A stretch of 16,792 bases of DNA, from assembly GCA_048939015.1 (NCBI GenBank), contig JBHLPW010000050.1:1-16792 (forward strand). Direction: 5' to 3'. The notes beneath the pieces are model-generated. The model did not search any database, was not told the origin of the DNA, and saw nothing but the letters and a program-made list of their open reading frames with translations. Positions 1 through 15,116 of this stretch are shown piece after piece (the first letter of the stretch is position 1; each line of letters starts with the position of its first letter). The stretch comes from Promethearchaeota archaeon (GTDB lineage Archaea > Asgardarchaeota > Lokiarchaeia > Sigyniarchaeales > SOKP01). A program made the translations under genes and the position numbers.

Positions 1-51
1 TTTTAATAGAACATAGTTATAGTCATTTTGAGTCTTGTTTTTATGAATCAT
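1..51 (-). CDS. Possible 5' end of a divergent gene running off the left edge (MIHKNKTQNDYNYVLLK...)
   Basis: ATG at 51 on the minus strand stays open for 17 codons to the window edge, and divergent genes are common in this locus. Too short to identify. Confidence 0.25.
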   Translation of the reverse strand, partial: MIHKNKTQNDYNYVLLK

Positions 52-199
52 TTAGAACCAATCAATTGAAATTTTGGAATTTTTTTTAATATTATGTGTT
101 TTTAAAGTTAATTAATTTGAAAAAAATATAAAAGCATGCAATCTAATTAATTTTAATTTAAGATTTTTAAGATATTTCCATTTAAGAATAAATCATAGT

Positions 200-1630
200 A
201 TGAAAATTGTAATAGTTAATCCTCCAAGATTTCAAGATTCATCAGTTACTAGAGAGGGACGTTGTGAGTTTATTTGCAATTACCGTGTTGATACACCAGC
301 AACGCTGTTAATCATAGCATCCTTATTATCAAATCAAAAATATCAGATCGATTTCATTGATGCAAATGCTAAAGATCTCGATTATAGAATTATAGGGAAT
401 TTATTGAAAAATAAGTATCCTGATTGTGTTATTTTTACTTTCAACTCTTGGATTATCGATCATGATTTAATTATTTGTAAAATAGCAAAAGAAATTAATC
501 CAGTCTGTAAAACAATAGGTTATTCATGGTTTGCTAAAAATTTTTCTATAGAAATACTTTCGAAGTTTAAAAATTTAGATATTCAAATAATTGAAGATCC
601 TTTTTCTGTGATTGAGAGCTTGATGGATTGTTTGAATAATAGAGGAAACCTCGAAAAAATTGAGGGAATTGCATATAAAAATAGTGATAATGAAATAAAA
701 ATAAATAATAAATTGAAAATTAAAAAGAGTTTTGAAGAATTACCTTTCCCTGCATATAATTTAATAGAATCATTTAAACCCTATTATTTATATACGCCCT
801 TCTTAAAGCCATATGCTTTAGTCTATGCTGGAAAAGGGTGTCCTTATAGTTGTGCATACTGTCCTGATGCTAATACAAAATATAGTGGTCGTTCAGCAGA
901 AGATATTGTAGAGGAATTAAAAGTTCTGAAGAATTTAGGAAAAATAAAATACGTTTGGTTTTATGACCAAGTATTTACTATTAACAGAAAACGTGTCATT
1001 AATTTCTGTAAAAAGATGATTGAGGAAAATCTAAATATTAGTTGGTTCTGTGATACTAGAGCAGACTTGGTTGATGAGAGACTATTAAAACTAATGAAGA
1101 CAGCAGGGTGTATAGGTGTTGCTTATGGTATCGAATCAGGCTCTCAAAAAATTTTAGATAATATGAAGAAATCTATATCTATAATTCAAGCGATACGAGC
1201 TTTAAAGTGGACTAGAAAAGCTAAGATTCCTATTCAACTAAATTTAATATTAGGATATGTGGGAGAGGATATAAACACACTTAAAGAAACAGGTAATTTT
1301 ATTAGATTAATTTTACCAGAATTTTTACAAATTTCTTTCATAATTGCGATGAGTGGCACAGAATTTACACATTTAGCAATAAAGAATGATTGGATAAGTA
1401 ATGAGTTGGGATCAAAAGATAAGTTTACAGATTTACCCTTAGACAAGAATCGATATAAGCCATTTCAACTCAATTTGCAAAAAGAAATAAGAAAACTGTT
1501 TAAAGCCATATTTCTGAATCTTAGATGGTGGACAATATGTATTAAATCATTAATTAATAATCGCCAATTGATTATACCAATTTTAGGAATGCTCCTATAT
1601 AGATCAAAGTCAATAAAAATTTTAAAATGA
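200..1630 (+). CDS. Radical SAM protein with N-terminal B12-binding-like domain (class B methyltransferase / BchE-HpnJ-like architecture)
   Basis: CxxxCxxC motif GCPYSCAYC (C214/C218/C221, nt 839-862). Family motifs: N-terminal VNPP...P-x-x-L...IDANA, LPFPAY, and GIESGSQKIL. Confidence 0.9.
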   Translation: MKIVIVNPPRFQDSSVTREGRCEFICNYRVDTPATLLIIASLLSNQKYQIDFIDANAKDLDYRIIGNLLKNKYPDCVIFTFNSWIIDHDLIICKIAKEINPVCKTIGYSWFAKNFSIEILSKFKNLDIQIIEDPFSVIESLMDCLNNRGNLEKIEGIAYKNSDNEIKINNKLKIKKSFEELPFPAYNLIESFKPYYLYTPFLKPYALVYAGKGCPYSCAYCPDANTKYSGRSAEDIVEELKVLKNLGKIKYVWFYDQVFTINRKRVINFCKKMIEENLNISWFCDTRADLVDERLLKLMKTAGCIGVAYGIESGSQKILDNMKKSISIIQAIRALKWTRKAKIPIQLNLILGYVGEDINTLKETGNFIRLILPEFLQISFIIAMSGTEFTHLAIKNDWISNELGSKDKFTDLPLDKNRYKPFQLNLQKEIRKLFKAIFLNLRWWTICIKSLINNRQLIIPILGMLLYRSKSIKILK

Positions 1631-2652
1631 AGATAAACTATTCTATAAGTTCATTAAGAGCGATTGCTATTATTCAAGTATTATTAATTCATGTTTTTTC
1701 TTATTATTTTCACAGTGCAACTTCTACTATCTTTTTAATTCCATTTTTTGATCAAATTATTCAATCAGCTGTACCCATTTTTATTTTTATATCAGGATAT
1801 ACTTTATCTTTAAGATATTGGGAGAATTTTTCTATTAAAACCTTCTATAAAAAAAGATTTAAGAATATTATTTTCCCCTATGCTTTTTTTAGTACACTTT
1901 ATATTGTTATTCCATCTTTAATAGATGGAACACCCATAATATTTGATTTCGAGGATTTTTTGAATATTCTTTTTGATCCCTGGAATTTTTATTATGTTTT
2001 CTGGTATATCGCTCTCATATCTTCATTTTACATTTTTTATCCTTTGTTGTTAAAAATATTTTTATGTTATAAAAATCAATTATTCCTCGTTCTAATGGCT
2101 TCAATATTAATTCAGATTGTATATAGATACTTTCACTTTTTTATAATTATTAGTCTTGAGAGCCTAAGCAATTTTATTGTTCTATATAAATTTTTATATT
2201 GGATACTGAATTATTCATTCCTTCGTTTCATATCTTATTTTGTTTTAGGTGTGTATATTTGTAAAAATTATTCCAAACTAGATTCAAATAGAAAATTTAT
2301 TTACTTATTAACGATTCCCGTTTTTATCTTTGCTACTTTAGGAGCTATTATAAATTCATATATATTTGAACCTTTTTTTTCAATTTTTATTATTCTCATA
2401 TATCTGGTTTTTCTATTAAATAAACAGAATTTTTTTTTAGAGACTACTGCTAAATATTCTTTTGGTATGTATCTGATTCATGCTTTAATTATGGATTATG
2501 TTGTTAGATTACTTGATCTAAGTTTTAATTATTGGTATTTCTACTTATTTTCTTTTGTTTTAACATTTACGTTTAGTATCTCAATTATTTTTGGGCTAAG
2601 TAAAGTACCAAAATCACATTATTTAATAGGAAAAACAGAAATTAATTATTAA
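1627..2652 (+). CDS. Acyltransferase family 3 (OafA/WecH/IcaC-like) membrane O-acyltransferase
   Basis: Motifs LRAIAIIQVLLIH (R-x10-H), AVPIFIFISGY, KRFKNIIFPY, FWYI and YSFGMYLIH. Polytopic hydrophobic protein. ATGA overlap with the radical SAM stop suggests translational coupling. Confidence 0.9.
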   Translation: MKINYSISSLRAIAIIQVLLIHVFSYYFHSATSTIFLIPFFDQIIQSAVPIFIFISGYTLSLRYWENFSIKTFYKKRFKNIIFPYAFFSTLYIVIPSLIDGTPIIFDFEDFLNILFDPWNFYYVFWYIALISSFYIFYPLLLKIFLCYKNQLFLVLMASILIQIVYRYFHFFIIISLESLSNFIVLYKFLYWILNYSFLRFISYFVLGVYICKNYSKLDSNRKFIYLLTIPVFIFATLGAIINSYIFEPFFSIFIILIYLVFLLNKQNFFLETTAKYSFGMYLIHALIMDYVVRLLDLSFNYWYFYLFSFVLTFTFSISIIFGLSKVPKSHYLIGKTEINY

Positions 2653-3568
2653 GAAATTCCTCTTGCTTTTTCATCTTCATAAGTGATTCTTCAATAGTTA
2701 ATGATCTAACATTCAATAATCTCTCAGCTTTACTCACATCCAAACAACAACGCATAGGTCTTTTAGCATCTTGTTTGAACATATCACTTGTAGTGGGCTT
2801 AATCAAACTTTTGTCGATCTCAAAAACTTCAGCAATTTTTAGTGTAAACTCATAACGATTGATACATTCTTTGCCAACAGTGTGAAAAAGACCATTGATA
2901 TTTGAATCTGCCATAGAAAATAAAAACTCAGCTAAATTATCTGCCAAAGTAGGTGTACTAAATTGATCAGTTACAATTTGTATTATTTCCTCATTTCTTA
3001 GTTTATTTAGAGCCCAAATAACATAATTCATTGTCTTCCCAGAACTAGATTTCTGTCCCTTAAGTTCTCCGGGATTCCACCCATAAACAAGACTTGTTCT
3101 TGCTATAGCAAAGCTAGCTCCAGAATTGGCTATTCCCTCTTCAGCTTTAAGTTTTGACTTACCATAGAAATTTAGTGGATTAGGCTCGCTGTTTTCATCA
3201 TACTTTTTATCCATACCATCAAATACATAATCTGTAGATATATAAATTAGTCTAGCATTGATCTTTTTACATAAATCTGCGATAAATAGAGGAGCTTTTA
3301 CATTAATATTCCAAGTTTCTTCTTGATGTGTCTCACAATAATCAACATTATGAAGAGCAGAGCAATCTACAATAATATCTGGTTTAATATCATTTACTAT
3401 AGAACTCAATCCTTCTTTATCTGTTTTATCCAGTTGAAAAATCTCACAATTATCAATTGTTACTGCACGATTATTATATGTACCATAAACATGATACTTT
3501 TGGGTTGCTGAATTTGCTAATTTATAGCCAGTTAACCCACTTGCTCCGATAATTAGTAACGTTTTCAT
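2642..3568 (-). CDS. rmlD: dTDP-4-dehydrorhamnose reductase family (NDP-4-keto sugar C4 reductase)
   Basis: GASGLTG Rossmann motif, VDYCE, YISTDYVFDG, YGKSK (YxxxK), DQFSTPT and AKRP. Confidence 0.88.
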   Translation of the reverse strand: MKTLLIIGASGLTGYKLANSATQKYHVYGTYNNRAVTIDNCEIFQLDKTDKEGLSSIVNDIKPDIIVDCSALHNVDYCETHQEETWNINVKAPLFIADLCKKINARLIYISTDYVFDGMDKKYDENSEPNPLNFYGKSKLKAEEGIANSGASFAIARTSLVYGWNPGELKGQKSSSGKTMNYVIWALNKLRNEEIIQIVTDQFSTPTLADNLAEFLFSMADSNINGLFHTVGKECINRYEFTLKIAEVFEIDKSLIKPTTSDMFKQDAKRPMRCCLDVSKAERLLNVRSLTIEESLMKMKKQEEFLNN

Positions 3569-3671
3569 AATAATATAGATTTTTTAAAAATTATAAATAT
3601 TAAAATTTACTATACAAAATTTACAAAATTAAAATTGACTGATTTAATCTTAAATAAAGAGGCTAATAGAG

Positions 3672-4190
3672 ATGATTGAAGGTATTGAAATTAAAGACAT
3701 TAAGAAATTTGTAGATGAGCGTGGATTCTTTTCTGAACTTTTAAGGGAAGATTGGAAAGATTTATTATCAGATGATAAAATAGTTCAATTTAACCTCTCA
3801 TTTAGTTATCCTGGCATCGTTAGGGCATGGCATAGACATTTAAAAGGACAAATCGACTATTTCATTTGTATCACTGGAGCGATAAAAGTGTGTGCTTATG
3901 ATGACAGAAATAACTCTGGAACTTCTGGGGAAATTGACGAAATTATACTTAGTGAAGAAAATTTAAGGGTTGCAAGAATACCTGGAATCCTTTGGCATGG
4001 ATATAAAGCAATTGGTACTAAACCAATTAAAATGTTATATGGTGTGAATATGTTATATGATTATTCAGAACCTGATGAAGAAAGAAGGAGTTGGAACGAT
4101 GCTTCTATAATTCCAAAATCAATAAATGGAAAAATCAACGATCCGAGAGTCGGAAAACCTTGGGATTGGTATTATTCACCTAATAAATAA
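3672..4190 (+). CDS. rmlC: dTDP-4-dehydrorhamnose 3,5-epimerase family cupin (SpsL/archaeal type)
   Basis: DERGFFSE, SYPGIVRAWHRH, IPGILWHGY and PDEERRSW motifs. GAGG RBS-like sequence upstream. Confidence 0.85.
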   Translation: MIEGIEIKDIKKFVDERGFFSELLREDWKDLLSDDKIVQFNLSFSYPGIVRAWHRHLKGQIDYFICITGAIKVCAYDDRNNSGTSGEIDEIILSEENLRVARIPGILWHGYKAIGTKPIKMLYGVNMLYDYSEPDEERRSWNDASIIPKSINGKINDPRVGKPWDWYYSPNK

Positions 4191-4221
4191 ATCTCTATTT
4201 TATAATACAAAAAACCTAAAA

Positions 4222-4228
4222 AAGGAGA
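4222..4228 (+). promoter_or_regulatory. Shine-Dalgarno-like site (AAGGAGA) of the SDR gene
   Basis: AAGGAGA lies 7 nt before the ATG at 4236. Confidence 0.55.
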
Positions 4229-4235
4229 ATTTAAT

Positions 4236-5219
4236 ATGAAAATTTTAGTAACTGGTGGATGTGGATTTGTAGGATGCTCAATAGTACCTCTACTTTTAGA
4301 AAATGGATACCAAATTAAAATTTTAGACTTGTTGTTATTCGGAGAAGAACCTATAGAATCCTTTAAGGATGATGTGGAAATTATAAAAGAGGATATAAGA
4401 AATTTCAATCCGTCAATTTTTGATGATATTGACACTGTTATCCATTTAGCTGCACTTTCACAACCAGATGAACTCAAACAAATACCACAAAATCTCTTTT
4501 ATGAAATAAATCTTAATGGTTCTACCAGAGTAGCAGAATATTGCAAGAAGGCTGGTGTTGAAAGGCTCATATTTGCATCTACATGTAGCGTATATGGTTA
4601 CCAGAAAGAGGTAATATATGAAACTACTGAACCGAAGCCATTAGAGGCTTACGGTGATTCTAAATTAAAAGCTGAGAAAGAACTTTTAAAACTAAGTGAT
4701 AAAGATTTTTGTGTTACTATAATGAGGCCAGCAACTATGTATGGGCTTTCTCCAAAAATGCGTTTTGATTTAGTCGTAAACGGTATGACATATGCATTAT
4801 ATAGCACAAAAGAAGTCAATGTTATGAAACCTGGAACACAATGGAGACCAAATATTCATGTTAGAGATGTGGGTCAAGCAATTAGAAAGATAATGGAAGC
4901 TGATAAGGAACTTGTTGATAAAGAGATTTTTAATATAGGTTCTAATGACCAGAATTATCAAATTCAAACTCTTGCGGAGGAGTTGGCGACCACGGTGTTA
5001 GGTGAATACAATCCAAAATGGTATGGACAGCCAGATACAAGATCTTATAAAGTTAATTTTGATAAATTGAGAGATACACTAGGTTTCAAACCAAATTATA
5101 CAGTATCCGATGCAGCAAAAGAAATAACTAAGGCGCTTGAGAGTGGGCAAATCGAAAAAACTGATAAAACAATCAATCTAAATTGGTATAAACTCTTGGT
5201 AGAAACAAAACAAATCTAA
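4236..5219 (+). CDS. Extended SDR NDP-sugar oxidoreductase/epimerase (not RmlB; candidate Cj1427-like C4-dehydrogenase)
   Basis: GGCGFVG, HLAA, ASTCSVYG, YGDSK (YxxxK), RPATMYGLSPKMRFDLVVN, IHVRD and DTRSY. Lacks the RmlB signatures STDEVYG and AESHVD. Confidence 0.85.
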   Translation: MKILVTGGCGFVGCSIVPLLLENGYQIKILDLLLFGEEPIESFKDDVEIIKEDIRNFNPSIFDDIDTVIHLAALSQPDELKQIPQNLFYEINLNGSTRVAEYCKKAGVERLIFASTCSVYGYQKEVIYETTEPKPLEAYGDSKLKAEKELLKLSDKDFCVTIMRPATMYGLSPKMRFDLVVNGMTYALYSTKEVNVMKPGTQWRPNIHVRDVGQAIRKIMEADKELVDKEIFNIGSNDQNYQIQTLAEELATTVLGEYNPKWYGQPDTRSYKVNFDKLRDTLGFKPNYTVSDAAKEITKALESGQIEKTDKTINLNWYKLLVETKQI

Positions 5220-5251
5220 TTTTACTTTTTTGATCCTACTTTTAAAAACTT
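5220..5251. terminator. T-rich gap between convergent SDR and rmlA (possible archaeal-type oligo-T terminator)
   Basis: TTTTACTTTTTT directly follows the SDR stop. No hairpin. Weak signal given the AT content. Confidence 0.3.
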
Positions 5252-5992
5252 TTATTCTTGTTCGATATTCTTTTCCATAAAAGTACTACATCGAAGTAAA
5301 GTTCTAAAAGTGCCTGCATCAGACCAAAAACCTTGCACAATTTGAGCTTTAGTTACTCCCTTTTTAATATAATGATTATTTACATCAGTAATTTCCAACT
5401 CTCCTCTGTCTGAATATCCAATGTTGTTTATAACATCTTCAATGATATCAAATATTCTCTCATCATAGAAATAAAGTCCAGTTACACAAAAATCAGTTTT
5501 AGGGACTTCTGGTTTTTCTTCAATATCAATAATTTCTCCTTTCCCATTTAGCTCTGCTACACCAAATCTCTCTGGATCAGGAACCTTTTTTAGAAATAGT
5601 AAACATCCATATTCTTTTGTTGTTTCAAATTCTGTTACAGCATTAGAAAATGAATTTTCAAATATATTATCACCTAAAATAACAGCAATTTTATAACCTT
5701 TCACTATTTTTTTAGTTAAATATAATGCTTCAGCAATGCCGCCAGCACCTTGTTGATAAACGTAATTAAAATTGGCATTAAATTCTGAACCGTCACCAAG
5801 CAATTTAATAAAATCACCAACGCTTTCGCCTCCAAGCACTATTGTTATATCATAAATACCTGAATTTGTTAGAGTTTTAATAGGTTTATATATCATTGGT
5901 TCGTCATAAACTGGTAGGAGATGTTTATTAGTCACTTTTGTGAGAGGAGATAATCTTGTACCAATTCCGCCAGCCAATATTATGCCTTTAAT
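5252..5992 (-). CDS. rmlA: Glucose-1-phosphate thymidylyltransferase, short SpsI/archaeal type; start revised to ATT at 5992 (246 aa)
   Basis: The frame extends upstream of the TTG call to give (M)KGIILAGGIGTRL. Also NKHLLPV, ILGDNIF, PERFGVAE, EKP, RGELEITD and WSDAGT. An in-frame TGA at 5999-6001 bounds the start. Confidence 0.9.
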   Translation of the reverse strand: MKGIILAGGIGTRLSPLTKVTNKHLLPVYDEPMIYKPIKTLTNSGIYDITIVLGGESVGDFIKLLGDGSEFNANFNYVYQQGAGGIAEALYLTKKIVKGYKIAVILGDNIFENSFSNAVTEFETTKEYGCLLFLKKVPDPERFGVAELNGKGEIIDIEEKPEVPKTDFCVTGLYFYDERIFDIIEDVINNIGYSDRGELEITDVNNHYIKKGVTKAQIVQGFWSDAGTFRTLLRCSTFMEKNIEQE

Positions 5993-6099
5993 ATGGAGTC
6001 ACTTATGCATTTTAAATATATTTTGAAAAATATTTTTTCAAAAAGTTATATATTTTAATTTTATTCAGAGAATATCAATTTTTTCATTTAATGCTGATT

Positions 6100-7017
6100 T
6101 CACTCAATTATTTTTAAAAATAATTCTTCTAAGGAAATTTTTGGTTCATTGATTCGACGAATTTTGTAGTTACTTAACATAGAAAATAAATCCTTGTAAT
6201 AACTCCTACGTTTCAAAATTATACCTATACCTTCATTTACTTCAAAAATATCCTCAATAAAATCTGATTTTTTCAAATTATTTTTCAATTCATTCTTTTC
6301 TTCACTTAATTCAACGATTATTCTAATTTGTGTTTGCATCAAATCTTTAACTTCATTCTGAGTGCCAATTTTTAAAATTCTACCTTTATTTATAAAAGCC
6401 ACCCGATCACAAAGTTTATCGACTACACTCATATCATGACTCGTGAGGAAAATTGTTTTCTTAAGAGTTTTTAATTTTTCAATTATAAAATTAGTTGTTG
6501 GTAAATCTAATCCTAATGTGGGTTCATCTAACACTAAGATCTGACGTTCTAGAAGTAGAGTTCTGCATAAGGCTAGTTTCATCTTCATCCCATTAGAATA
6601 TGAACTAACATATTGCCCCAACCAATTATTTAGCCCAAATTCATTAGAGATTTTCTCAATTTTTTTTTTATAATTTGGAATTTTATAAATTCTACAAAAA
6701 AATTTTAAGTTATCATAGCCAGTTATCCTATAATATAGCATCTGACTGTCTAACATAAGCCCAATTAAGGATTTTACCTTTTTGGGTTGTGTCACAACAT
6801 TAAATCCATTTACAAACGCAGACCCACTTGTAGGTTGAGTTATTGTTGTTAAAATTTGGATTAGAGTAGTCTTTCCAGCACCATTCGGCCCTAAAAGTCC
6901 AAATATCTCACCATTTTTAATAGATAGATTTACTTTATCTAATGCTTGAATTTCACTATGCCTTCCTTTTAAATTATAGACTTTTGAGAGGCTAGATGTT
7001 TCAATTATTTCTGTCAT
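6100..7017 (-). CDS. ABC transporter ATP-binding protein (DrrA/NodI-like)
   Basis: Walker A GPNGAGKT, signature YSNGM, Walker B/D-loop LVLDEPTLGLD, H-loop TSH, and C-terminal SLEELF. Confidence 0.93.
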   Translation of the reverse strand: MTEIIETSSLSKVYNLKGRHSEIQALDKVNLSIKNGEIFGLLGPNGAGKTTLIQILTTITQPTSGSAFVNGFNVVTQPKKVKSLIGLMLDSQMLYYRITGYDNLKFFCRIYKIPNYKKKIEKISNEFGLNNWLGQYVSSYSNGMKMKLALCRTLLLERQILVLDEPTLGLDLPTTNFIIEKLKTLKKTIFLTSHDMSVVDKLCDRVAFINKGRILKIGTQNEVKDLMQTQIRIIVELSEEKNELKNNLKKSDFIEDIFEVNEGIGIILKRRSYYKDLFSMLSNYKIRRINEPKISLEELFLKIIE

Positions 7018-7025
7018 AATGCTTA

Positions 7026-7847
7026 TTAGTATCCAGTTATTCCGTATTTTTTATAAACATAATTAAAGAGGGCAACACCAATAATAGGTAGGATAATAGT
7101 TGTACCTATTAAAACTATAAAGTGAAGTGAGAAAGTACTAATTACAATTAATATATCATTTTGAATCCACGTTAACCGTAATATATCAAAAATATAGTAA
7201 AGTGGGTTTAGAAATATTAAGTTTTGTAAAAATTCTGGGAAAATTTCAAATGGATATGTAACACAACTAAACCAAATAATAAAAAGCATTATAAATTTTA
7301 ACAAATTCCAGATATTCTCGTTTGATATTGCAAAAACACCCATAATTAAACCAATACCACTAAAGACTAATGCAATAATAAAAAATATCAAAAGGACTAC
7401 TAAGAATGTAAATATTGAAATTGGATAAATTATATAACTAAGAATTAAAAAAATAGTGAAAGGAATTGATATCATGATTAGATGTGAAAAAAATATTCCA
7501 AGTAAAAGATTAAATCTATTAAATGGGCCAATTATAAGAGCTGGTAAAGTTTTCCAGTATTTCTCATTACGAAATTGACCAGGAAAAATCTCGGTTATTC
7601 CTGATAGGAGCATAATATTATAGGCAATAAATTGATATAGAAGAAAATTATTAGACGTCCAAGGGCCGATATCTGATCTAAACTGAAATAAATTTCCCAT
7701 AACAATTAATGGTGTAAAAATCGATACTAAATAGGTTATATATGAAATAATAAGTCCAAGTTTGTATCTTAACCTTAATTTAATGTTCTTTTCAGTTAAT
7801 GCTAATATTTGAGATAAGTTCTCCTTAATTGTATTATTATTGACCAT
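7026..7847 (-). CDS. ABC-2 type transporter permease
   Basis: About 6 hydrophobic segments and a YPFEIFPEFLQ...LNPLYY motif. Its stop lies 8 bp upstream of the ATPase gene start. Confidence 0.88.
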   Translation of the reverse strand: MVNNNTIKENLSQILALTEKNIKLRLRYKLGLIISYITYLVSIFTPLIVMGNLFQFRSDIGPWTSNNFLLYQFIAYNIMLLSGITEIFPGQFRNEKYWKTLPALIIGPFNRFNLLLGIFFSHLIMISIPFTIFLILSYIIYPISIFTFLVVLLIFFIIALVFSGIGLIMGVFAISNENIWNLLKFIMLFIIWFSCVTYPFEIFPEFLQNLIFLNPLYYIFDILRLTWIQNDILIVISTFSLHFIVLIGTTIILPIIGVALFNYVYKKYGITGY

Positions 7848-7986
7848 ATTTTTGTAAAAATCTGTAATATTCTTCTAAATAATTAAAGTTAAAAGGTTCT
7901 CTTGTTTAAACATTATTATTTTAACTTAAATCAATTTTAGATTATTTCTAAATAGATTTATTTTTTATCTTATTTGAATGACGATT

Positions 7987-8874
7987 TTATTGTTTTTTTA
8001 ATGATTTCCCAACACATAATACACTCGCACATGCAATCCAAGGACTTATTCCATCTAAAATTCGAGATATTACTCTTCCAATGAAGTTAAGTTTAAAATT
8101 AATACTATAGGGCACTTTTAAGAAGGGGAAGTCAACTCCTAATCCAATTGCATGGTTTTTAGAATCATGAAAATCATGGGGTACTGTTTGAATAACTTTA
8201 AAATTAGATTGTTTTAGGAATGAATGTAATTCTTTAATTGAATATCTATACTCTACGAAATGCCGATAAATTCTTTTCTTTTTGGAACCACTTCCTTTAA
8301 AATCATCTTTTTTAAATTTAGTCTTATTGCCGATAATTCTAATTTTACCTATTAAAAAATAGAGTCTATTCAATAACTGAAGAATAGGTTTAATGAATAT
8401 CTTTCTGATAACATTAACTGTAGGTGTTGACAAAAAAATTATACCATTTGGCTTCAAAACTCTATTTGCTTCTTTTAAAGCGAGCAAAGGTCCCTCTTCA
8501 AAATGTTCTACCACACCCATCGAAATATAAGCATCATAATAATTGTCTGGGTATTCTAAATTTAAAATATCACCAAATTCTACCTTTAAAGACTTATTAA
8601 AATTTTTCAATTTACTTATTGCTATTTCATTATTATCTACACCAATAACATCATAGCCTTTCCTTGAAAGGTATATCACCCATTTACCAAAACCACACCC
8701 TCCATCGATAATTCTCCCTTTTTTGGGAATATATGATAAAAACATCTCTCTTGGAGCAGTTTCTATATCACATGCTTCTAATTCATCTTTGATAGTTCGA
8801 GTGGACCACATACCATCCCATAACGTACATTTGGGATTATTATCATAATAATAAATCTTTTGCAGTTTTGACAC
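7987..8874 (-). CDS. Class I SAM-dependent methyltransferase (Methyltransf_11/25-like)
   Basis: IIDGGCGFG motif I, GVD, GDI, YDAYISMGVVEHF and RVLKPNG. GTG start; an in-frame CTG at 8865 is an alternative. Confidence 0.88.
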   Translation of the reverse strand: MSKLQKIYYYDNNPKCTLWDGMWSTRTIKDELEACDIETAPREMFLSYIPKKGRIIDGGCGFGKWVIYLSRKGYDVIGVDNNEIAISKLKNFNKSLKVEFGDILNLEYPDNYYDAYISMGVVEHFEEGPLLALKEANRVLKPNGIIFLSTPTVNVIRKIFIKPILQLLNRLYFLIGKIRIIGNKTKFKKDDFKGSGSKKKRIYRHFVEYRYSIKELHSFLKQSNFKVIQTVPHDFHDSKNHAIGLGVDFPFLKVPYSINFKLNFIGRVISRILDGISPWIACASVLCVGKSLKKQ

Positions 8875-8961
8875 CTGTTTTTTTGTGTTTGTAAATAAAA
8901 AGCTTGTAAAATAACAATAAAATGAGCTATTCGTTAGAATTGCAACTAAAATTGAGGTTTA

Positions 8962-10521
8962 TCAAAAATTAATTTTAAGTTTATTAATTGTTTTATCTAG
9001 TATATTTTTTTCTCTTTCTGAGATTAAATATTGTAAACTATCAACATTTTTTATTTTTTTTCTAAAATTAAATAAATATGATTTCATCTCGTTATAGTTT
9101 TCATCATTTTGGTCAACAATATTAATTTGTTCGAAAGGATCGTTAACCAAATCATAAAATTCTTCAATTTGGTTTTGAAAATTTATATACTTATATCTAC
9201 TACTTCTAAGGAAATATAAATCATAAATTATTTTCGGAATTTGGTCTTTTTTTATATGTTTTCTGTGATTATTAACAATCATATGCATCTCTCTTCTTAC
9301 TTTTAAATGTTCTCCATAAATATAATGTGGCGTAGTATTATTATCAATCTGGTATAAAATTGATTTTTCAGGATTTAAATATTTATTTCTATCATTTGAA
9401 ATTCCAGTTAAATGAAGGATTGTATGAAATAAGTCTATTAATTCAACTTGATTTGATATTATTCTTTTTTTGAAATTAGTGTTATAAATGATTAATGGGA
9501 CTCTTATCAATGGCTCATATGCACTTTGGTCAACTCCATGACCATAAAAACAATATTCTTTTTGATCAGATAAATGTTCTCCATGATCCGATGTAATAAT
9601 AACGTACGTATTTTGTAATAACTTTAATCTACTCAGAATAGAAAATATTTTTCCGATAATCATATCACTATAATAAACACTTGAATCATACAATTTCTTA
9701 AGGATCTTAGTTTGCTTTTCAGATAAATATTTTGATTTTATATTAATATTAAAAAACGTCCTTCTTGCATTAATTAAAAAATTTTTAATATATTTAAAAT
9801 CATGAATATCAAATTCACAGTAATCTAAAGCTTTTTGAATTGGAATATATGGGTAATGTGAAGCCATTATATTGAAAAACAAATATATAGGCTTTTTTTC
9901 AATGTTATTCTTCAAAAAGATATAATATTTTTCCAAAATATCAAGTGTATTCTTTGATTCAAAGAGCCAATTCTTCCAGGAAATGGATTTGATAATCATT
10001 TCAATAAAATACTTAAGTCGGATCTTAATCTTTCTCCATAATCGTGATATTGATTTAATATATAATCCCTTATCTAGTATAAAGTCTATTCTATTTAAAA
10101 TGGAATCAGAAAAAGAAGCTGCTTTATTATTTTCAAGGATTTCGAATGTTTTTCTAGCATTTCTGAAGATATGGTCAAAACCTCTTGTTAATCTAAAAAA
10201 TCTGTTTATCCAAGGATTTTCTGTATAACAAACAGTAGAGTAACCTAAATCTTTGAGTGTTTCTGTTAATATAGGTAATTTATAACTTAAATTATGTAAA
10301 TATTTACTAAAAAGTTTTATTTGGGTGGAGTACAATCCTGTGAACATAGATAAATGAGAAGGTAAAGTCCAAGTGTTATTACTTATGCAATTTTCAAAAT
10401 AGATGGAATTATCTAATATTTTTGATATATTCGGAGTTAAATTCTTATCTTTAAAAGTTGCTGAAATTTTATCAGCTCTTAGTGCATCTAATACAATAAA
10501 AATAATATTTGGTGAATTCAG
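8962..10521 (-). CDS. Sulfatase-like alkaline-phosphatase-superfamily enzyme with a Thr nucleophile; start revised to CTG at 10521 (519 aa)
   Basis: The frame stays open 58 codons upstream of the ATG call and encodes PNIIFIVLDALRAD, TPNI and WTLPSHLSMFTG. Downstream motifs are SHYPY, TSDHGEH, HG, RVPLII and YDLVNDPFEQ. An in-frame TGA lies 4 codons before the CTG. Confidence 0.85.
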   Translation of the reverse strand: MNSPNIIFIVLDALRADKISATFKDKNLTPNISKILDNSIYFENCISNNTWTLPSHLSMFTGLYSTQIKLFSKYLHNLSYKLPILTETLKDLGYSTVCYTENPWINRFFRLTRGFDHIFRNARKTFEILENNKAASFSDSILNRIDFILDKGLYIKSISRLWRKIKIRLKYFIEMIIKSISWKNWLFESKNTLDILEKYYIFLKNNIEKKPIYLFFNIMASHYPYIPIQKALDYCEFDIHDFKYIKNFLINARRTFFNINIKSKYLSEKQTKILKKLYDSSVYYSDMIIGKIFSILSRLKLLQNTYVIITSDHGEHLSDQKEYCFYGHGVDQSAYEPLIRVPLIIYNTNFKKRIISNQVELIDLFHTILHLTGISNDRNKYLNPEKSILYQIDNNTTPHYIYGEHLKVRREMHMIVNNHRKHIKKDQIPKIIYDLYFLRSSRYKYINFQNQIEEFYDLVNDPFEQINIVDQNDENYNEMKSYLFNFRKKIKNVDSLQYLISEREKNILDKTINKLKINF

Positions 10522-10789
10522 AGTAAGATATCATCTAAATGTCTTTTAAATTATACTTGATTTAAACAAGAATAGTTTAAAAAATTTTGTAAGGTTTTAA
10601 AGTTGGAAAAGCAATTTGTATCTATTTTAAGCAAATATTTTTATTATTTTAAAATCTTGAATTTTCTACTTTTAAAGAAGCTACTCCATCGAGATGATTA
10701 TGGATAATTGGGGTAAAATATAATATAAAAGATATGAAATATTTTAGAAAAATAATTCAGTTCCTTGAATTAATATAGGTTTATATCTT

Positions 10790-11770
10790 TTGGAAAAGTT
10801 AGTCTCGATAATAATCTTAAATTATAATGATTATTCATATACAATTGCTTGTATAAAATCATTATTAAATCAAACCTACCATCATTTTGAGATAATTCTT
10901 ATTGATAATGGTTCTAAATTCAACTTGTATTTAGAATTAAAAAATAAGATAAAGCAATTTGAATATAAACTAGTTATTAAATTAGTAAGAAATGAAAGAA
11001 ATTTGTATTTTGGGGGAGGGAGTAATAAAGGGATAAAAATAGCAAAAGGAGATTATATCTGCTTATTAAATAATGATACTATAGTTATGCCAGATTTTAT
11101 TGAAAAAATGGTTAATTTCTTAGAAAAACATCCCGAGGCTGGTATGATTACTCCAAAAATAAAATTTAATAAACACAAAGAATATATTTGGAATGCAGGA
11201 GCTTTTATAAATTATAGAACTACAATTGTAGTAATTAATAGGGGTTATTTGGATTATGATCCTATGAATGAGAAATACAATAATATTACAAAAATAGATT
11301 TTGCTCCCGGTACTGCTGTTTTTCTTAAAAAACAAATTGTTGATGAAATTGGATTAATGGATGAGATATTCTTAATGTATCATGAAGATCCCGACTGGAA
11401 TATTAGAGCTCAACAGAAAGGTTATATAAGTTATTATGTTCCTACTACAATAGTTTATCATGATGTACCTATTAAAAATAATGAAAATAGGCAATTATTT
11501 AACTCATATTTCTTTAAAAGAAATTCCCAAATCATGGTCTGGAAGTATGCTACCTTTCATAACGTAATAATTTTTAATGTTCTTTTTTTTTATAGTATTC
11601 TATGGCAAATTATTACAGCGATTTTCCTCGGAAAAATGAAAGAACTCTTTTTTTCACTCAAAGCAATATGGCAAGGTTTCATTATAGGTATTAAAAGAAG
11701 GACAAATCGATCATGTAAAAAAAATCTAATAAAAAATTACTATTTTGTAAAAAATCTCCAGACGTTTTGA
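10790..11770 (+). CDS. Family 2 glycosyltransferase (WbbL/RfbF rhamnosyltransferase-like), paralogue A
   Basis: SIIILNYN, IDNGS, LLNND, FLMYHEDPDW and VYH motifs, with a C-terminal hydrophobic segment. TTG start. Confidence 0.92.
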   Translation: MEKLVSIIILNYNDYSYTIACIKSLLNQTYHHFEIILIDNGSKFNLYLELKNKIKQFEYKLVIKLVRNERNLYFGGGSNKGIKIAKGDYICLLNNDTIVMPDFIEKMVNFLEKHPEAGMITPKIKFNKHKEYIWNAGAFINYRTTIVVINRGYLDYDPMNEKYNNITKIDFAPGTAVFLKKQIVDEIGLMDEIFLMYHEDPDWNIRAQQKGYISYYVPTTIVYHDVPIKNNENRQLFNSYFFKRNSQIMVWKYATFHNVIIFNVLFFYSILWQIITAIFLGKMKELFFSLKAIWQGFIIGIKRRTNRSCKKNLIKNYYFVKNLQTF

Positions 11771-11812
11771 GTCCAATAATAAGAGATTTAGAAGTCCTTA
11801 CAAAATTTCAAG

Positions 11813-12676
11813 TTAGCTATTGAAAATTATTCCAATCCCATATCCCTCTTGATGGTACTTCTCTATTATTTCATTTGTCTTACAATTTTCACGGATCTCA
11901 TTCCAGAAATTAGGAACACCTCCTACTTTATCATTAGAACCTTGAATGATATCGTGAAAGCATATTAAACCTTCCGGCTTAACTAATGGTTTATACATTT
12001 CGAAATCTTTCTTTACACCTTCATAAGTATGATCTCCATCAATAAAAAGAATATCAATTTTCATATTTTTTAAAATCTTCTTTATTCTTTGGAATGTTGA
12101 GAGTTTATGAGAATCACTTCTGATCAAAATTATTTTTTGTTTTTTCTGGGCAAATGATTTAATAAAAGCTGTATTTTTACCACCAATTTTCCCTTTTAAT
12201 AAGTCTATTGATATTAGAATTGCATCAGAAGAAACAAATCTAGAAAATAGGAATAAGGTTCCTCCCATAGCGGTTCCAATTTCGAGAATTATTTTTGGAT
12301 TGAATGAATCCATTAATTTTAGAAATCTAATAATTTCAGATTTAATTTGATAAGGAGTTAGGTTTATTTCATAGCATGAATGTAATGGGATATCAGGAAG
12401 AGAAAATCGGAAATTATAGCAAAGATCAACAATTTCTTCAACATTTTTAGATTTGGTGCTTAATTTTTGCAATTTTTTTGATGCTAAAATATTGGTAACG
12501 TTTATTATTAAATTCCTTGAGTTATTTCCTGTGAGTAAATCGATGAATTCGATACCAAACCTACTTTTTAATACAATATGATAAAAAAGGATACTTCCAC
12601 TTTTTGTATCAGTAAATGCTTTAAAGAAATTATGTATTATTTTCTTTATTAAGATTTTAATTCTTAAATCACACAT
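11813..12676 (-). CDS. SAM-dependent methyltransferase, Methyltransf_24-like (candidate sugar O-methyltransferase)
   Basis: ILEIGTAMGGT, ISID, SDS, DILFIDGDHTYEGVKKDF, LVKPEGLICFHD and GVPNFW. The exact start is uncertain. Confidence 0.87.
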   Translation of the reverse strand: MCDLRIKILIKKIIHNFFKAFTDTKSGSILFYHIVLKSRFGIEFIDLLTGNNSRNLIINVTNILASKKLQKLSTKSKNVEEIVDLCYNFRFSLPDIPLHSCYEINLTPYQIKSEIIRFLKLMDSFNPKIILEIGTAMGGTLFLFSRFVSSDAILISIDLLKGKIGGKNTAFIKSFAQKKQKIILIRSDSHKLSTFQRIKKILKNMKIDILFIDGDHTYEGVKKDFEMYKPLVKPEGLICFHDIIQGSNDKVGGVPNFWNEIRENCKTNEIIEKYHQEGYGIGIIFNS

Positions 12677-12914
12677 CCTTTAGTTTTAATCATAATGAGA
12701 TAGTACGATTGAAAATTATTTTAATTCATAATGAATTTTTTTAGAAAATAATTCTCTTATTGATTGTCTCTAAAGATTCTAAAATAATTTTAATTTATGA
12801 ATCACAATACTTATTAAGAAATAATTAAGTAATTTAAACCTGTAAGCTTTAAGAAAATTAGATCTTATCACATTTAAAATTAACAAGGCTTCTATTTATA
12901 AAGGGTCATTATTT

Positions 12915-13895
12915 TTGGAAATTTTAGTTTCTGTTATTATATTAAATTACAATAATTATCGACTTACTCTTGATTGCTTAGAATCATTAACAAAACAAAC
13001 TTACAAAGAATTTGAAGTAATCCTACTTGATAACGGTTCAAAAAAAGAATTATTTTTAGAATTGGAAAAAGGAGTTAATCGATTTAAAACAATTTTAAAT
13101 ATCAAATTAATTCAAAATACAAGAAATACGTATTTTGTAGCAGGCAGTAATAAAGCTATTAAAATAGCAAAAGGAGAATATATTTGTCTACTTAATTATG
13201 ATGTAATTGTTAATGCAGATTTTATAGAAAAAATGGTTTTTTTCTTGAAATCTCATCCAGAAGCTGGTATGATTACTCCTAAAATTAGAGTTTATAAAGA
13301 CAAACGTATATTGTGGAATACTGGGGCATATCTTAACTTTAGATCTGCGATCGTCATTGGAAATCGTGGATATTTAGATTATGATCCACAAAATAAAAAA
13401 TATAATGAAATAGAGGCAATCGGATTTGCTCCTGGTACTTCTGTTTTTATAAAGAAAATTGTAATTGAAAATATTGGATTAATGGATGAAATTTTTTTGA
13501 TGTATCATGAAGATCCTGATTGGAATTTACGAGCGCAAAAGAAAGGATATATATCATATTACGTTCCTACAACAACAGTTTATCATAATATCCCTCGTAT
13601 TATATCAGAGGAGAGAGTAATTTTCAATCACTATTTCTTTACAAGAAATTCTCAGATTCTTATATGGAAACATGCTAAATTCTTAGATATTCTAATCTTT
13701 TATTATATTTTCGTTATTTTTAATATTGGGATTATTTTTTTAAATATTATAACGAAAAAATTCAATTCAATTATTATAAGGCTTAATTCAATTAAACAAG
13801 GATTTAGAATCGGTTTAAAAAGAAGGACAAACCGTTCATGTAAAGAGTATATTGTTTCTGATTATAAATATATCAATAAAATTCAAAATTTTTAA
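12915..13895 (+). CDS. Family 2 glycosyltransferase (WbbL/RfbF-like), paralogue B
   Basis: SVIILNYN, LDNGS, LLNYD and FLMYHEDPDW motifs. TTG start. Colinear with 10790..11770. Confidence 0.92.
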   Translation: MEILVSVIILNYNNYRLTLDCLESLTKQTYKEFEVILLDNGSKKELFLELEKGVNRFKTILNIKLIQNTRNTYFVAGSNKAIKIAKGEYICLLNYDVIVNADFIEKMVFFLKSHPEAGMITPKIRVYKDKRILWNTGAYLNFRSAIVIGNRGYLDYDPQNKKYNEIEAIGFAPGTSVFIKKIVIENIGLMDEIFLMYHEDPDWNLRAQKKGYISYYVPTTTVYHNIPRIISEERVIFNHYFFTRNSQILIWKHAKFLDILIFYYIFVIFNIGIIFLNIITKKFNSIIIRLNSIKQGFRIGLKRRTNRSCKEYIVSDYKYINKIQNF

Positions 13896-13903
13896 TAAAT
13901 CAA

Positions 13904-14929
13904 TTAGATGTATTTAAAAATTTTATTTAGAGTATTTAAGAATTTTCTAAAGAATTTAATTCTCTGTAAATTACCAAGTAAAATGGGATCTAAAGTTTTT
14001 GATAACTTCTGATAAGGTAATAGATCTACTACTTTCATAGATTTTTCTCTTACACTTTTTAAATGCTTGATATTAAAGATAAGCTCTAGATAAATTTTAA
14101 GCCTTAACCCAAATTTTCTAATCAAAAATGAATGAAAGATTAAGATTAATTCCACAATTATAATTATTGGAAATAATTTGTGGATATTACTAACGTTTCT
14201 AATAATTAAGATAAACCGATTACGTTCAAGGAAGTAGTATTGAAATTTATTTAGGGTTTGGAATTTTTTTTGATGGATGAGGAAAGGATCATTAGTTGTA
14301 TATATTTTATATCCATTTCTTAACAATCTTAATGATAAATCAGTATCTTCATAATACATGAAGAATTTTTTATAAAAACCTCCCATTTTTAAGAATAAAT
14401 CTTTTTTAATGAATAATGTTCCACCAGACAATCTCTGAGTGAGTTTTATAATCTTATTTTTGGGTAGTTCTTCATCAACTTCAGGGGTATAAGAGAATCC
14501 CAGGAAATGATTTTTTGCCCCAAAATAATGAATTCTTCCTGTTTCAAAAACCAATGCAGGAGATATTACAATTTCGTGATTTAATTTAAAATCTTTATAA
14601 ATTTGATTCAATTTCTCAAAAAAATCAGGAGGGAACAAGACATCTTGATTTGTAATAAATAGAAAATCTCCATTAGATTTCACTGCCCCTGAATTACAAG
14701 CTCCGGCAAACCCTTCATTTTTTGGATTTTTAATTAGTTTAATTTTAATATCTTTTTCAAAAGATTTTATTGTTTTAATCGTTGAATCAGTTGACATATT
14801 ATCAATAATAACAACCTCAATTCTCTTCAAACTATTTAATCTTTTTATAGAATCCAAATTTTTTTTTAAACAAAATGCTCCGTTATAAGTTGGAATTATA
14901 ATTGAAATGGAAGGTGTTGTTATTTGCAT
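13904..14929 (-). CDS. Family 2 glycosyltransferase (WbbL/RfbF-like)
   Basis: SIIIPTYN, IDNMSTD, NEGFAGACN, ITNQD, FFMYYEDTDL and ERNR motifs. Confidence 0.92.
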   Translation of the reverse strand: MQITTPSISIIIPTYNGAFCLKKNLDSIKRLNSLKRIEVVIIDNMSTDSTIKTIKSFEKDIKIKLIKNPKNEGFAGACNSGAVKSNGDFLFITNQDVLFPPDFFEKLNQIYKDFKLNHEIVISPALVFETGRIHYFGAKNHFLGFSYTPEVDEELPKNKIIKLTQRLSGGTLFIKKDLFLKMGGFYKKFFMYYEDTDLSLRLLRNGYKIYTTNDPFLIHQKKFQTLNKFQYYFLERNRFILIIRNVSNIHKLFPIIIIVELILIFHSFLIRKFGLRLKIYLELIFNIKHLKSVREKSMKVVDLLPYQKLSKTLDPILLGNLQRIKFFRKFLNTLNKIFKYI

Positions 14930-15116
14930 AATTTCGAGATTGTTTTAGTTTTCGAAGAATAAGGAATAAATATAATCATTTAATTATCTTATTAATTGTT
15001 TTGCCTAATAATTTTTAATATAGTAATATAATGTAATATTTTTTACAGTTGAGAAAAATATATTTACATAATTTAATTAACAATTAAAAAAAATTGATAT
15101 TATTAAAGTAATTTTA

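Follow-up and report, generated by a model that had tools for sequence, protein, structure and literature searches.

How does an archaeon make use of three of the four gene families for dTDP-L-rhamnose (dTDP, deoxythymidine diphosphate) synthesis when the gene for the 4,6-dehydratase RmlB is missing? The question is raised by 16,792 nucleotides of DNA from a Promethearchaeota archaeon (assembly GCA_048939015.1, contig JBHLPW010000050.1, positions 1 to 16,792), hereafter called the window, which form the first 16.8 kb of a 35.6-kb contig in an assembly of 4.86 Mb, with 30% G+C and an estimated completeness of 94.9%. The closest named homologs, proteins of Promethearchaeia, Hermod-, Loki- and Thorarchaeota, likewise mark it as Asgard. 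In the window, genes resembling rmlD, rmlC and rmlA surround an extended short-chain dehydrogenase/reductase (SDR), an arrangement already described in the original prediction, which was made from the sequence alone, and found again here in open reading frames (ORFs) at the following positions:

2642-3568, minus strand: RmlD-like C4-reductase of 308 residues (P0003), matching PF04321 (RmlD_sub_bind) with 227.7 bits; divergent from the rmlC-SDR pair
3672-4190, plus strand: RmlC-like cupin of 172 residues (P0002), the proposed C3/C5 epimerase of a 4-keto sugar, matching PF00908 (dTDP_sugar_isom) with 67.5 bits
4236-5219, plus strand: extended SDR of 327 residues (P0001), Cj1427-like, the proposed NAD-dependent C4-dehydrogenase of a nucleoside diphosphate (NDP)-hexose, in the place of RmlB
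5252-5992 (listed ORF 5252-5977), minus strand: short-form RmlA-like sugar-1-phosphate thymidylyltransferase of the NTP_transferase family; convergent with the SDR gene

The SDR gene lies downstream of the RmlC-like cupin gene and in the same direction, with a gap of 45 nucleotides between the two. The answer that we favor, and consider probable, is that the SDR is a ping-pong, NAD-dependent NDP-hexose C4-dehydrogenase of the type of Campylobacter jejuni Cj1427, which would feed a 3,5-epimerase and a C4-reductase. Comparative evidence supports the view that the block belongs to a widespread type of module, with such a Cj1427-like enzyme in the place of RmlB.

The SDR and its kinship with Cj1427

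The catalytic segment of the SDR reads F-A-S115-T116-C117-S118-V-Y-G and does not contain the Asp-Glu pair of RmlB (S-T-D-E-V-Y-G), while the sequence HLAALSQPD occupies the site of the AESHVD motif of RmlB; both absences had been claimed in the original prediction and are evident in the translation. The catalytic triad is T116/Y139/K143, with 23 residues separating T116 from Y139. In the family of the SDR, the pattern S-[ST]-C-S-[VIL]-Y-G is present in 119 of 120 members, and Ala replaces the Cys in some of the members that are linked to the module (Nitrososphaerota and Zixibacteria). The RmlB proteins of Asgard archaea and Thermococcales that were fetched for comparison do carry STDEVYG.

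Which characterized enzyme does the SDR resemble most? Its best sequence match in the Protein Data Bank (PDB) is Cj1427 (6VO6/6VO8, E 1.1e-32), the motifs RMRLDLLVN, IHVRD and DKRDY of which align with RPATMYGLSPKMRFDLVVN (residues 164-182), IHVRD (207-211) and PDTRSY (266-271) of the SDR, giving the common pattern RMR[FL]DL[LV]VN, IHVRD and DxRxY. The resemblance named in the original prediction is borne out by alignment. A profile built from 15 members of the SDR family scores Cj1427 at 178.9 bits and the next structure, a UDP-glucuronate 4-epimerase, at 132.9 bits; RmlB structures, with 80-105 bits, are the lowest-scoring among the close SDRs. The AlphaFold model of the protein (predicted local distance difference test score 91.6) also has 6VO8 as its top match in Foldseek, with template-modeling scores of 0.82-0.88 and 4-epimerases close behind. 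Sequence, profile and fold thus confirm that Cj1427 is the closest characterized relative of the SDR. Among curated NCBIfam models, the RmlB equivalog TIGR01181 gives 82.1 bits against a cut-off of 365.1, and the best match, the GalE model TIGR01179, gives 122.3 bits against a cut-off of 262.3.

In a phylogenetic tree (FastTree, midpoint root), the SDR family forms one clade with support of 99, apart from four RmlB proteins and from five other SDRs of this genome, so that it does not group with RmlB; the placement of Cj1427 comes from the PDB sequence, profile and fold scores given above. Cj1427 oxidizes the C4 of GDP-D-glycero-D-manno-heptose, and its tightly bound NADH is re-oxidized by alpha-ketoglutarate to yield L-2-hydroxyglutarate, after which Cj1430 and Cj1428 act (PMC10680097), the chemistry on which the original prediction had drawn.

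The search for RmlB

Could RmlB be encoded elsewhere? The window contains no rmlB, as noted originally, and a motif scan of all ORFs of the 4.86-Mb genome returned none with [ST][ST]DE[VI][YF]G and, with AESHVD scanned as well, no RmlB-like match. Everywhere in this 94.9%-complete genome the RmlB model TIGR01181 remains below its cut-off of 365.1, the best score being 167.7 bits. The possibility that another extended SDR of this genome is a hidden RmlB was considered and rejected: the others have epimerase-, UXS-, GMD- or CDP-glucose-dehydratase-like segments, none exceeds 168 bits with TIGR01181 and none is linked to the module.

The same separation extends to related organisms. Of the 301 Asgard genomes that were sampled, 20 have an SDR ortholog, with an identity of 41% or more, and 45 have RmlB, with zero overlap, and several of the 20 SDR carriers are 98-100% complete. 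RmlB was likewise not found in the genome of Thermococcus sp. 21S7, nor in seven of ten other carrier genomes. Among the cultured carriers, Paenibacillus sp. GYB003, Marinobacter oulmenensis DSM 22359, Stappia sp. WLB 29 and Thermodesulfobacterium hydrogeniphilum DSM 14290 are without RmlB.

Distribution and genomic context of the module

The original prediction had suggested surveying other genomes for rmlA, rmlC and rmlD together with an SDR of the RFDL type, without rmlB, and a survey found this module across archaea and bacteria. Scanning of species-representative genomes for two family motifs produced at least 600 stretches, from which 80 loci were taken; 69 of these have a clear SDR ortholog. 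Within 5 kb of the SDR in the 69 loci, RmlC is present in 47, RmlD in 44, RmlA in 51 and any of the three in 63, while RmlB is present in a single one. The archaeal loci belong to Bathyarchaeia, Thermoproteota, Nitrososphaerota, Thermoplasmatota, Aenigmatarchaeota and Archaeoglobus, and the bacterial loci to Bacillota, Alpha- and Gammaproteobacteria, Planctomycetota, Thermodesulfobacteriota, Chloroflexota and others. An RmlC-like gene adjoins the SDR in nearly all orthologous loci, and RmlC-, RmlD- and RmlA-like genes flank it in nearly all those of Asgard archaea. The four genes form a single operon in Thermococcus sp. 21S7, Thermococcus sp. JdFR-02 and a Nezhaarchaeales genome.

Two genomes have both systems. 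Paenibacillus hemerocallicola possesses the cluster RmlA-oxidase-RmlC-SDR-RmlD and, elsewhere, a separate RmlC-RmlD-RmlB cluster. In the Thaumarchaeota metagenome-assembled genome (MAG) REEA14 (L143:446-10160), an SDR with the S-S-A-S-I-Y-G variant of the catalytic segment, accompanied by RmlC and RmlD, lies beside a complete RmlC-RmlB-RmlD set, with a single RmlA for both; the parallel arrangement around a shared RmlA suggests that two different products are made.

A second class of gene context was also recognized, in which the SDR stands beside a DegT-type (DegT/DnrJ/EryC1) aminotransferase. It comprises 16 loci, including L133, L150, L154, L164, L170, L134, L144, L136, L099 and L124, many of which have no RmlC or RmlD, and in two (L170 and L124) an L-2-hydroxyglutarate oxidase is nearby too. 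Sugar aminotransferases take a keto sugar and release alpha-ketoglutarate. This context fits the same role of the SDR, though alone it does not tell a dehydrogenase from a dehydratase, and it suggests a possible route to 4-amino-4-deoxy-hexoses in which the 6-hydroxyl would be kept.

More distant relatives with the RxRFDLV motif (L044, L048, L049, L155, L160-L163, L167-L169 and L171) are encoded by open frames of 470-550 codons and have no RmlC or RmlD neighbors; they may carry an N-terminal extension or be fusion proteins.

Partner enzymes

The labels rmlC, rmlA and rmlD of the original prediction hold at the level of protein family, and for RmlD also at that of the equivalog, which the RmlC-like and RmlA-like proteins do not reach. 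The RmlD-like protein, which carries STDYVFDG and YGKSK, scores 225.1 bits with TIGR01214, barely above the cut-off of 224.05. The RmlC-like protein obtains 58.9 bits with TIGR01221, for which the equivalog cut-off is 155.75. Its His54 and Tyr129 align with the catalytic base and acid of RmlC, and an Asp occupies the position of Lys73 (the canonical set being His63/Lys73/Tyr133/Asp170), the residue that stabilizes the enolate in canonical RmlC. The same Asp is found in the RmlC proteins of canonical rmlACBD operons of Asgard archaea (L050:839-1315 and L051:975-1457). Because operons of RmlB type have it too, the substitution is a trait of a short archaeal class of RmlC and not a sign of inactivity. 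The nearest solved relative of this class is the uncharacterized structure 3EJK. Canonical RmlC binds dTDP-glucose with O6 hydrogen-bonded (PMC7949155), and consequently can hold a 6-hydroxyl.

For the RmlA-like protein, TIGR01207 gives 222.5 bits against an equivalog cut-off of 360.65, while the best PDB match is the short-form RmlA of Bacillus anthracis (3HL3/4ECM, E 1.1e-65), with about half of the residues identical over the HMMER alignment; comparison with the RmlA of canonical Asgard rmlACBD operons gives 380-392 bits. The TTG start listed for this gene, at 5977, leaves out the conserved KGIILAGG strand, whereas the open frame extends upstream to an ATT at 5992. On the minus strand, positions 5975-6010 read ATG-CAT-AAG-TGA and then CTC-CAT-ATT-AAA-GGC-ATA-ATA-TTG in the frame of the rmlA-like gene, so that ATT 5992 comes after an in-frame stop; this suggests that translation starts at a non-canonical codon or that a very short ORF precedes the gene.

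In a tree across archaea, the RmlD proteins on the side of the SDR fall in clades apart from those on the side of RmlB. Most Thermococcales loci with RmlC have the canonical order RmlA-RmlB-RmlC-RmlD, and two have operons of the SDR type. In these two, RmlC is nested among canonical RmlC proteins, with 80-88% identity, and RmlA is 66-83% identical to the canonical protein, while RmlD forms a long separate branch with 100/100 support. RmlD thus changes together with the SDR, which argues for a distinct pathway, given that an isofunctional swap of RmlB alone would need no new reductase.

One Asgard operon of the SDR type (L034, genome G044) has an RmlC that nests within the Thermococcales radiation of RmlC and an SDR that groups with those of Thermococcus; the pattern suggests that the operon was transferred as a whole between an Asgard lineage and Thermococcales.

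Linkage to L-2-hydroxyglutarate oxidase

If the SDR works by the ping-pong mechanism of Cj1427, what disposes of the 2-hydroxyacid? Clustering of all neighboring ORFs revealed an FAD oxidoreductase no more than 1.5 kb from the SDR, and mostly on the same strand, in 12 of the 69 loci. Eight of the ten FAD oxidases that were scanned exceed the curated cut-off of 299 bits of NF008726 (L-2-hydroxyglutarate oxidase), with scores of 306-546. The carriers include Paenibacillus hemerocallicola, two Cohnella species, Thermodesulfobacterium hydrogeniphilum, an Acidiferrobacterales MAG, a Bacillota MAG and a Thermoplasmata MAG; by similarity, the oxidase is also a neighbor of the SDR in Paenibacillus sp. 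GYB003. Mapped on the SDR tree, the linkage needs at least five changes, and the oxidases fall into two score classes. As controls, 30 Paenibacillaceae loci with canonical RmlB were searched and no oxidase match was convincing (two short ORFs at E ~1e-7), and the NF008726 cut-off is passed in one of 14 control genomes. Since the substrate of the oxidase is the by-product of the Cj1427 reaction, the linkage fits a ping-pong mechanism of this type; a 4,6-dehydratase restores its NAD+ within the catalytic cycle and yields no such by-product, which would leave the oxidase without a role.

In the locus of Thermococcus sp. 21S7, a dehydrogenase of the Ldh_2 family is encoded between the SDR and RmlC (L021:9069-10172, plus strand); it scores 329 bits with the L-sulfolactate dehydrogenase model, the cut-off of which is 500. 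ComC, a methanogen enzyme of the Ldh_2 family, interconverts alpha-ketoglutarate and (S)-2-hydroxyglutarate, and by analogy the Thermococcus protein may be a recycler of 2-hydroxyacids comparable to the bacterial oxidase. As a general recycler Ldh_2 was rejected: its linkage was found in this one locus, and the two Ldh_2 copies of the archaeal genome studied here are not linked to the module.

The proposed pathway

What, then, would the four enzymes make? Both RmlC and RmlD depend on a free 4-keto sugar as substrate, and it is the SDR that must supply it. In the pathway that we propose, the RmlA-like enzyme would make dTDP-D-glucose, with UDP-glucose as an alternative, and the SDR would oxidize its C4 to release free dTDP-4-keto-D-glucose with the 6-hydroxyl intact, its bound NADH being re-oxidized by a 2-oxoacid, which in the relatives would be alpha-ketoglutarate converted to L-2-hydroxyglutarate. 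The RmlC-like cupin would then epimerize C3 and/or C5, and the RmlD-like reductase would reduce C4 with NAD(P)H, to give a dTDP-L-hexose with a 6-hydroxyl. This product would have the L-manno or L-talo configuration after full 3,5-epimerization, or be another epimer if only one center is inverted, and could be used, decorated and exported by the neighboring glycosyltransferases, methyltransferases, acyltransferase and ABC-2 exporter. We infer the catalytic steps, the nucleotide, the sugar, the oxidant (in what is an anaerobe-like archaeon) and the final stereochemistry alike from comparative evidence.

The C4-dehydrogenase logic of the original prediction is supported by the kinship with Cj1427, the absence of RmlB, the conservation of the module and the L-2-hydroxyglutarate oxidase of distant relatives. 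The sugar that had been named, dTDP-L-mannose, becomes one of several possible products: most likely, the pathway keeps the 6-hydroxyl and yields a rare dTDP-L-hexose. More tentatively, and with a little less than even confidence, we propose that this is a widespread and so far unrecognized archaeal and bacterial pathway, annotated throughout as rhamnose synthesis, in which a C4-dehydrogenase driven by alpha-ketoglutarate/L-2-hydroxyglutarate would lead via free dTDP-4-keto-glucose to a dTDP-L-hexose with a 6-hydroxyl (dTDP-L-mannose or dTDP-L-talose) and would also feed DegT-type aminotransferases for the synthesis of 4-amino-4-deoxy-hexoses that are not 6-deoxy sugars. Literature searches returned nothing relevant on a dTDP-glucose C4-dehydrogenase, its link with 2-hydroxyglutarate or RmlB-less archaeal rhamnose clusters, and in the library searched no paper was found that describes such a pathway for dTDP-hexoses.

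If the proposal is correct, the current annotation as dTDP-rhamnose synthesis is mistaken for hundreds of loci in archaea and bacteria, which make another sugar, and genome-based inventories of rhamnose use are wrong for the organisms that carry them. Cj1427, which has been described as a unique ping-pong dehydrogenase of the capsule of one pathogen, would become a member of a broad class acting on hexoses, and this class would have a dedicated recycling partner in L-2-hydroxyglutarate oxidase. New L-hexoses would be predicted in the glycans on the surface of Asgard archaea as well as of cultured bacteria, for example Paenibacillus, Cohnella, Marinobacter, Stappia and Thermodesulfobacterium.

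Weighing alternative explanations

Several observations weigh against a Cj1427-type dehydrogenase. Its main rival is that the SDR is a non-canonical dTDP-glucose 4,6-dehydratase with other catalytic residues (for example, Cys117 as the general acid) and that the block makes dTDP-L-rhamnose after all. The SDR sits in the RmlB position of operons of the form RmlA-X-RmlC-RmlD; in Thermococcales it lies exactly in the slot between an RmlA and an RmlC that are both orthologous to the canonical ones, the pattern expected of an isofunctional replacement, and the RmlA, RmlC and RmlD of Thermococcus pass their equivalog cut-offs (537, 283 and 320 bits). The SDR and RmlB never occur together in the Asgard sample, even if chance alone would lead one to expect both in about three of the 20 carriers, and related genomes are not independent samples. 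The nearly invariant Cys117 occupies the site of Asp134 of RmlB, in a T-C-S segment for which Cj1427 has T-N-S; the dehydrogenase reading leaves the role of the Cys unexplained. Also to be set against that reading, the oxidase linkage belongs to a sister, mostly bacterial, subclade and not to the archaeal subclade of the window; no L-2-hydroxyglutarate oxidase of this genome exceeds the cut-off (the best has 149.7 bits) and none is linked in the window; and to our knowledge L-mannose and L-talose are not established natural sugars. Despite these points we judge the dehydratase unlikely. Neither of the two positions involved in dehydration is acidic in the SDR, and the presence of Ala in place of Cys in some module-linked members means that the Cys is not an indispensable dehydration acid, which weakened Cys117 as a candidate for this function. 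The L-2-hydroxyglutarate oxidase that at least five lineages have within the module would have nothing to do, some genomes keep a complete RmlB set alongside the module, and RmlD is replaced together with the SDR; moreover, the closest characterized enzyme is a dehydrogenase.

In a second alternative, the SDR, RmlC-like and RmlD-like proteins of this genome might act on a nucleotide-heptose, as Cj1427, Cj1430 and Cj1428 do, with the RmlA-like enzyme activating a heptose-1-phosphate. They would be fed by an operon that lies on the same contig about 20 kb downstream (C33:24751-31062; L026:8751-15062) and consists of co-directional genes: hddA-like, gmhA, rpe, gmhB, tal, hldE-domain-I-like and the two halves of tkt. 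From its gene content, this block is predicted to combine the synthesis of heptose with the non-oxidative branch of the pentose phosphate pathway. The same arrangement recurs in another Asgard genome (G023), no guanylyltransferase of the HddC type exceeds its cut-off anywhere in the genome, and the only characterized relative of the SDR acts on a heptose. We nonetheless find this explanation improbable: GmhA was not found in 11 of the 20 Asgard SDR carriers, including a 100%-complete genome of a single contig, and is present in one of nine carriers outside the window's own family (f1); the transferase of the module is of the RmlA type, as indicated here by the match to the B. anthracis enzyme and elsewhere by rmlA_long scores of 513-537 bits, and the RmlA-like protein has 44.8 bits with HddC, below other nucleotidyltransferases of the genome; and between the two loci lie genes for a tRNA synthetase and a RING ligase. 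On the distribution of GmhA and the nature of the transferase, heptose was rejected as the general substrate of the module, for which a hexose is more likely. Least probable of all, in our opinion, is that the SDR is an ordinary 4-epimerase, GalE-like on an NDP-glucose or WbiB/Tle-like on dTDP-L-rhamnose, and so no source of a 4-keto sugar for RmlC and RmlD. Its S-T-C-S or S-S-A-S segment does look epimerase-like (plant UDP-xylose 4-epimerases have S-T-C-A-T-Y-G), 4-epimerases come close behind Cj1427 in fold and profile searches, and GalE is the best NCBIfam model, yet with a score far under its cut-off. Carriers without RmlB have no other source of the free 4-keto substrate of RmlC and RmlD, an epimerase of rhamnose would need RmlB too, and an enzyme that recycles its own NAD does not need a 2-hydroxyglutarate oxidase. 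The WbiB/Tle dTDP-L-rhamnose 4-epimerase has the triad S121/Y181/K185, with a spacing of about 60 residues from Ser to Tyr, compared with 23 from Thr to Tyr in the SDR (PMC11549994; the comparison is one of spacing).

On the same contig, outside the window, a 377-residue SDR (C33:23480-24613; L026:7480-8613, minus strand) has an insert of about 55 residues with C-P-N-C-G between its Ser (ASSNTVYG) and Tyr (YAFSK), a spacing that resembles that of WbiB/Tle rhamnose 4-epimerases. Together with a second SDR (CTSAEYG, GMD/LegB-like), it is encoded directly upstream of the heptose operon.

Other genes of the window

The rest of the window contains the following genes, those from the methyltransferase at 7987 onwards having been assigned by Pfam/NCBIfam scans:

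200-1630, plus strand: B12-type radical SAM (S-adenosylmethionine) enzyme, PF04055; scores with class-B radical SAM models are 120-148 bits, in each case under the cut-off
1627-2652, plus strand: AT3 acyltransferase, PF01757
6100-7017, minus strand: ATPase of an ABC-2 type exporter, PF00005
7026-7847, minus strand: permease of an ABC-2 type exporter, PF01061
7987-8874, minus strand: SAM methyltransferase
8962-10347, minus strand: sulfatase/phosphodiesterase-like gene
10790-11770, plus strand: family 2 glycosyltransferase (GT2)
11813-12676, minus strand: CmcI-like methyltransferase
12915-13895, plus strand: GT2
13904-14929, minus strand: GT2
15117-16790+ (open end): large membrane protein

The window is a surface-glycan locus. 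By their position, the radical SAM enzyme and the AT3 acyltransferase are likely to be tailoring enzymes of the same glycan locus. ABC transporter ORFs occur near the module in 11 of the 69 loci. The original prediction had called the three GT2 proteins rhamnosyltransferase-like; they do match the "rhamnosyltransferase" model TIGR01556, with weak scores of 42-55 bits against a cut-off of 200.55, which do not give donor specificity, and their position makes them candidate users of the product of the pathway.

Genes for sulfate activation (ATP sulfurylase, APS kinase and a gene of the type I phosphodiesterase family) are located on the same contig (L026:15091-18211, minus strand), and in Thermococcus sp. 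21S7 an identical set immediately precedes the RmlA-SDR-Ldh_2-RmlC-RmlD operon (L021:1401-6765). Their proximity to both loci hints that the glycans of both organisms may be sulfated.

Comparison with known systems

With the canonical rhamnose pathway the module shares three of the four gene families and the layout of the RmlA-RmlB-RmlC-RmlD operon. The RmlA and RmlC of the Thermococcales operons of SDR type are orthologous to the canonical proteins, and canonical rmlACBD operons in sister Asgard genomes carry a very similar short RmlA. It differs in that RmlB is absent from the locus and from the genome, its place being taken by an SDR that has neither T-D-E nor AESHVD and falls outside the RmlB clade, in that the RmlD partners form separate clades, and in that the RmlC-like and RmlA-like proteins of the window remain below the equivalog cut-offs.

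GalE and related 4-epimerases resemble the SDR in their extended-SDR fold and in having no acidic residues in the catalytic segment, and they are the next-best matches after Cj1427. The SDR, however, scores far below the GalE cut-off, and an epimerase that keeps its keto intermediate bound would not explain the pairing with RmlC and RmlD or with the oxidase. A precedent for retaining the 6-hydroxyl is GDP-mannose 3,5-epimerase (GME), which makes GDP-L-galactose and GDP-L-gulose by transient oxidation at C4, epimerization at C3/C5 and reduction. GME carries out all steps within one SDR, with retained NAD and a Cys/Lys acid-base pair, whereas the steps proposed here would be split over three enzymes; the Cys of the SDR presumably differs as well, being at +1 after the catalytic Ser/Thr and at +2 in GME.

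The closest parallel remains that of C. jejuni HS:2, in which Cj1427, Cj1430 (MlghB) and Cj1428 (MlghC) convert GDP-D-glycero-D-manno-heptose to GDP-D-glycero-L-gluco-heptose (PMC10680097, PMC7949155). The two differ in several respects: identity between Cj1427 and the SDR is about 30-35%, with T-C-S in the latter and T-N-S in the former after the catalytic Thr; the nucleotidyltransferase of the module is of the RmlA type, pointing to a dTDP- or UDP-hexose instead of a GDP-heptose; the reductase belongs to the RmlD family, while MlghC is GDP-fucose-synthase-like (PMC7949155); the window has no linked recycling oxidase; and the module extends across many archaeal and bacterial phyla instead of being limited to a capsule locus. 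What the two systems would share is the underlying logic, in which oxidation of C4 without dehydration is followed by a cupin C3/C5 epimerase, of the RmlC superfamily in both, and by a C4 reductase. The module, like the Cj1427 pathway, works with genes for a cupin epimerase and a reductase and has none for a 4,6-dehydratase, and the L-2-hydroxyglutarate oxidase found beside relatives of the SDR fits the alpha-ketoglutarate ping-pong of Cj1427.

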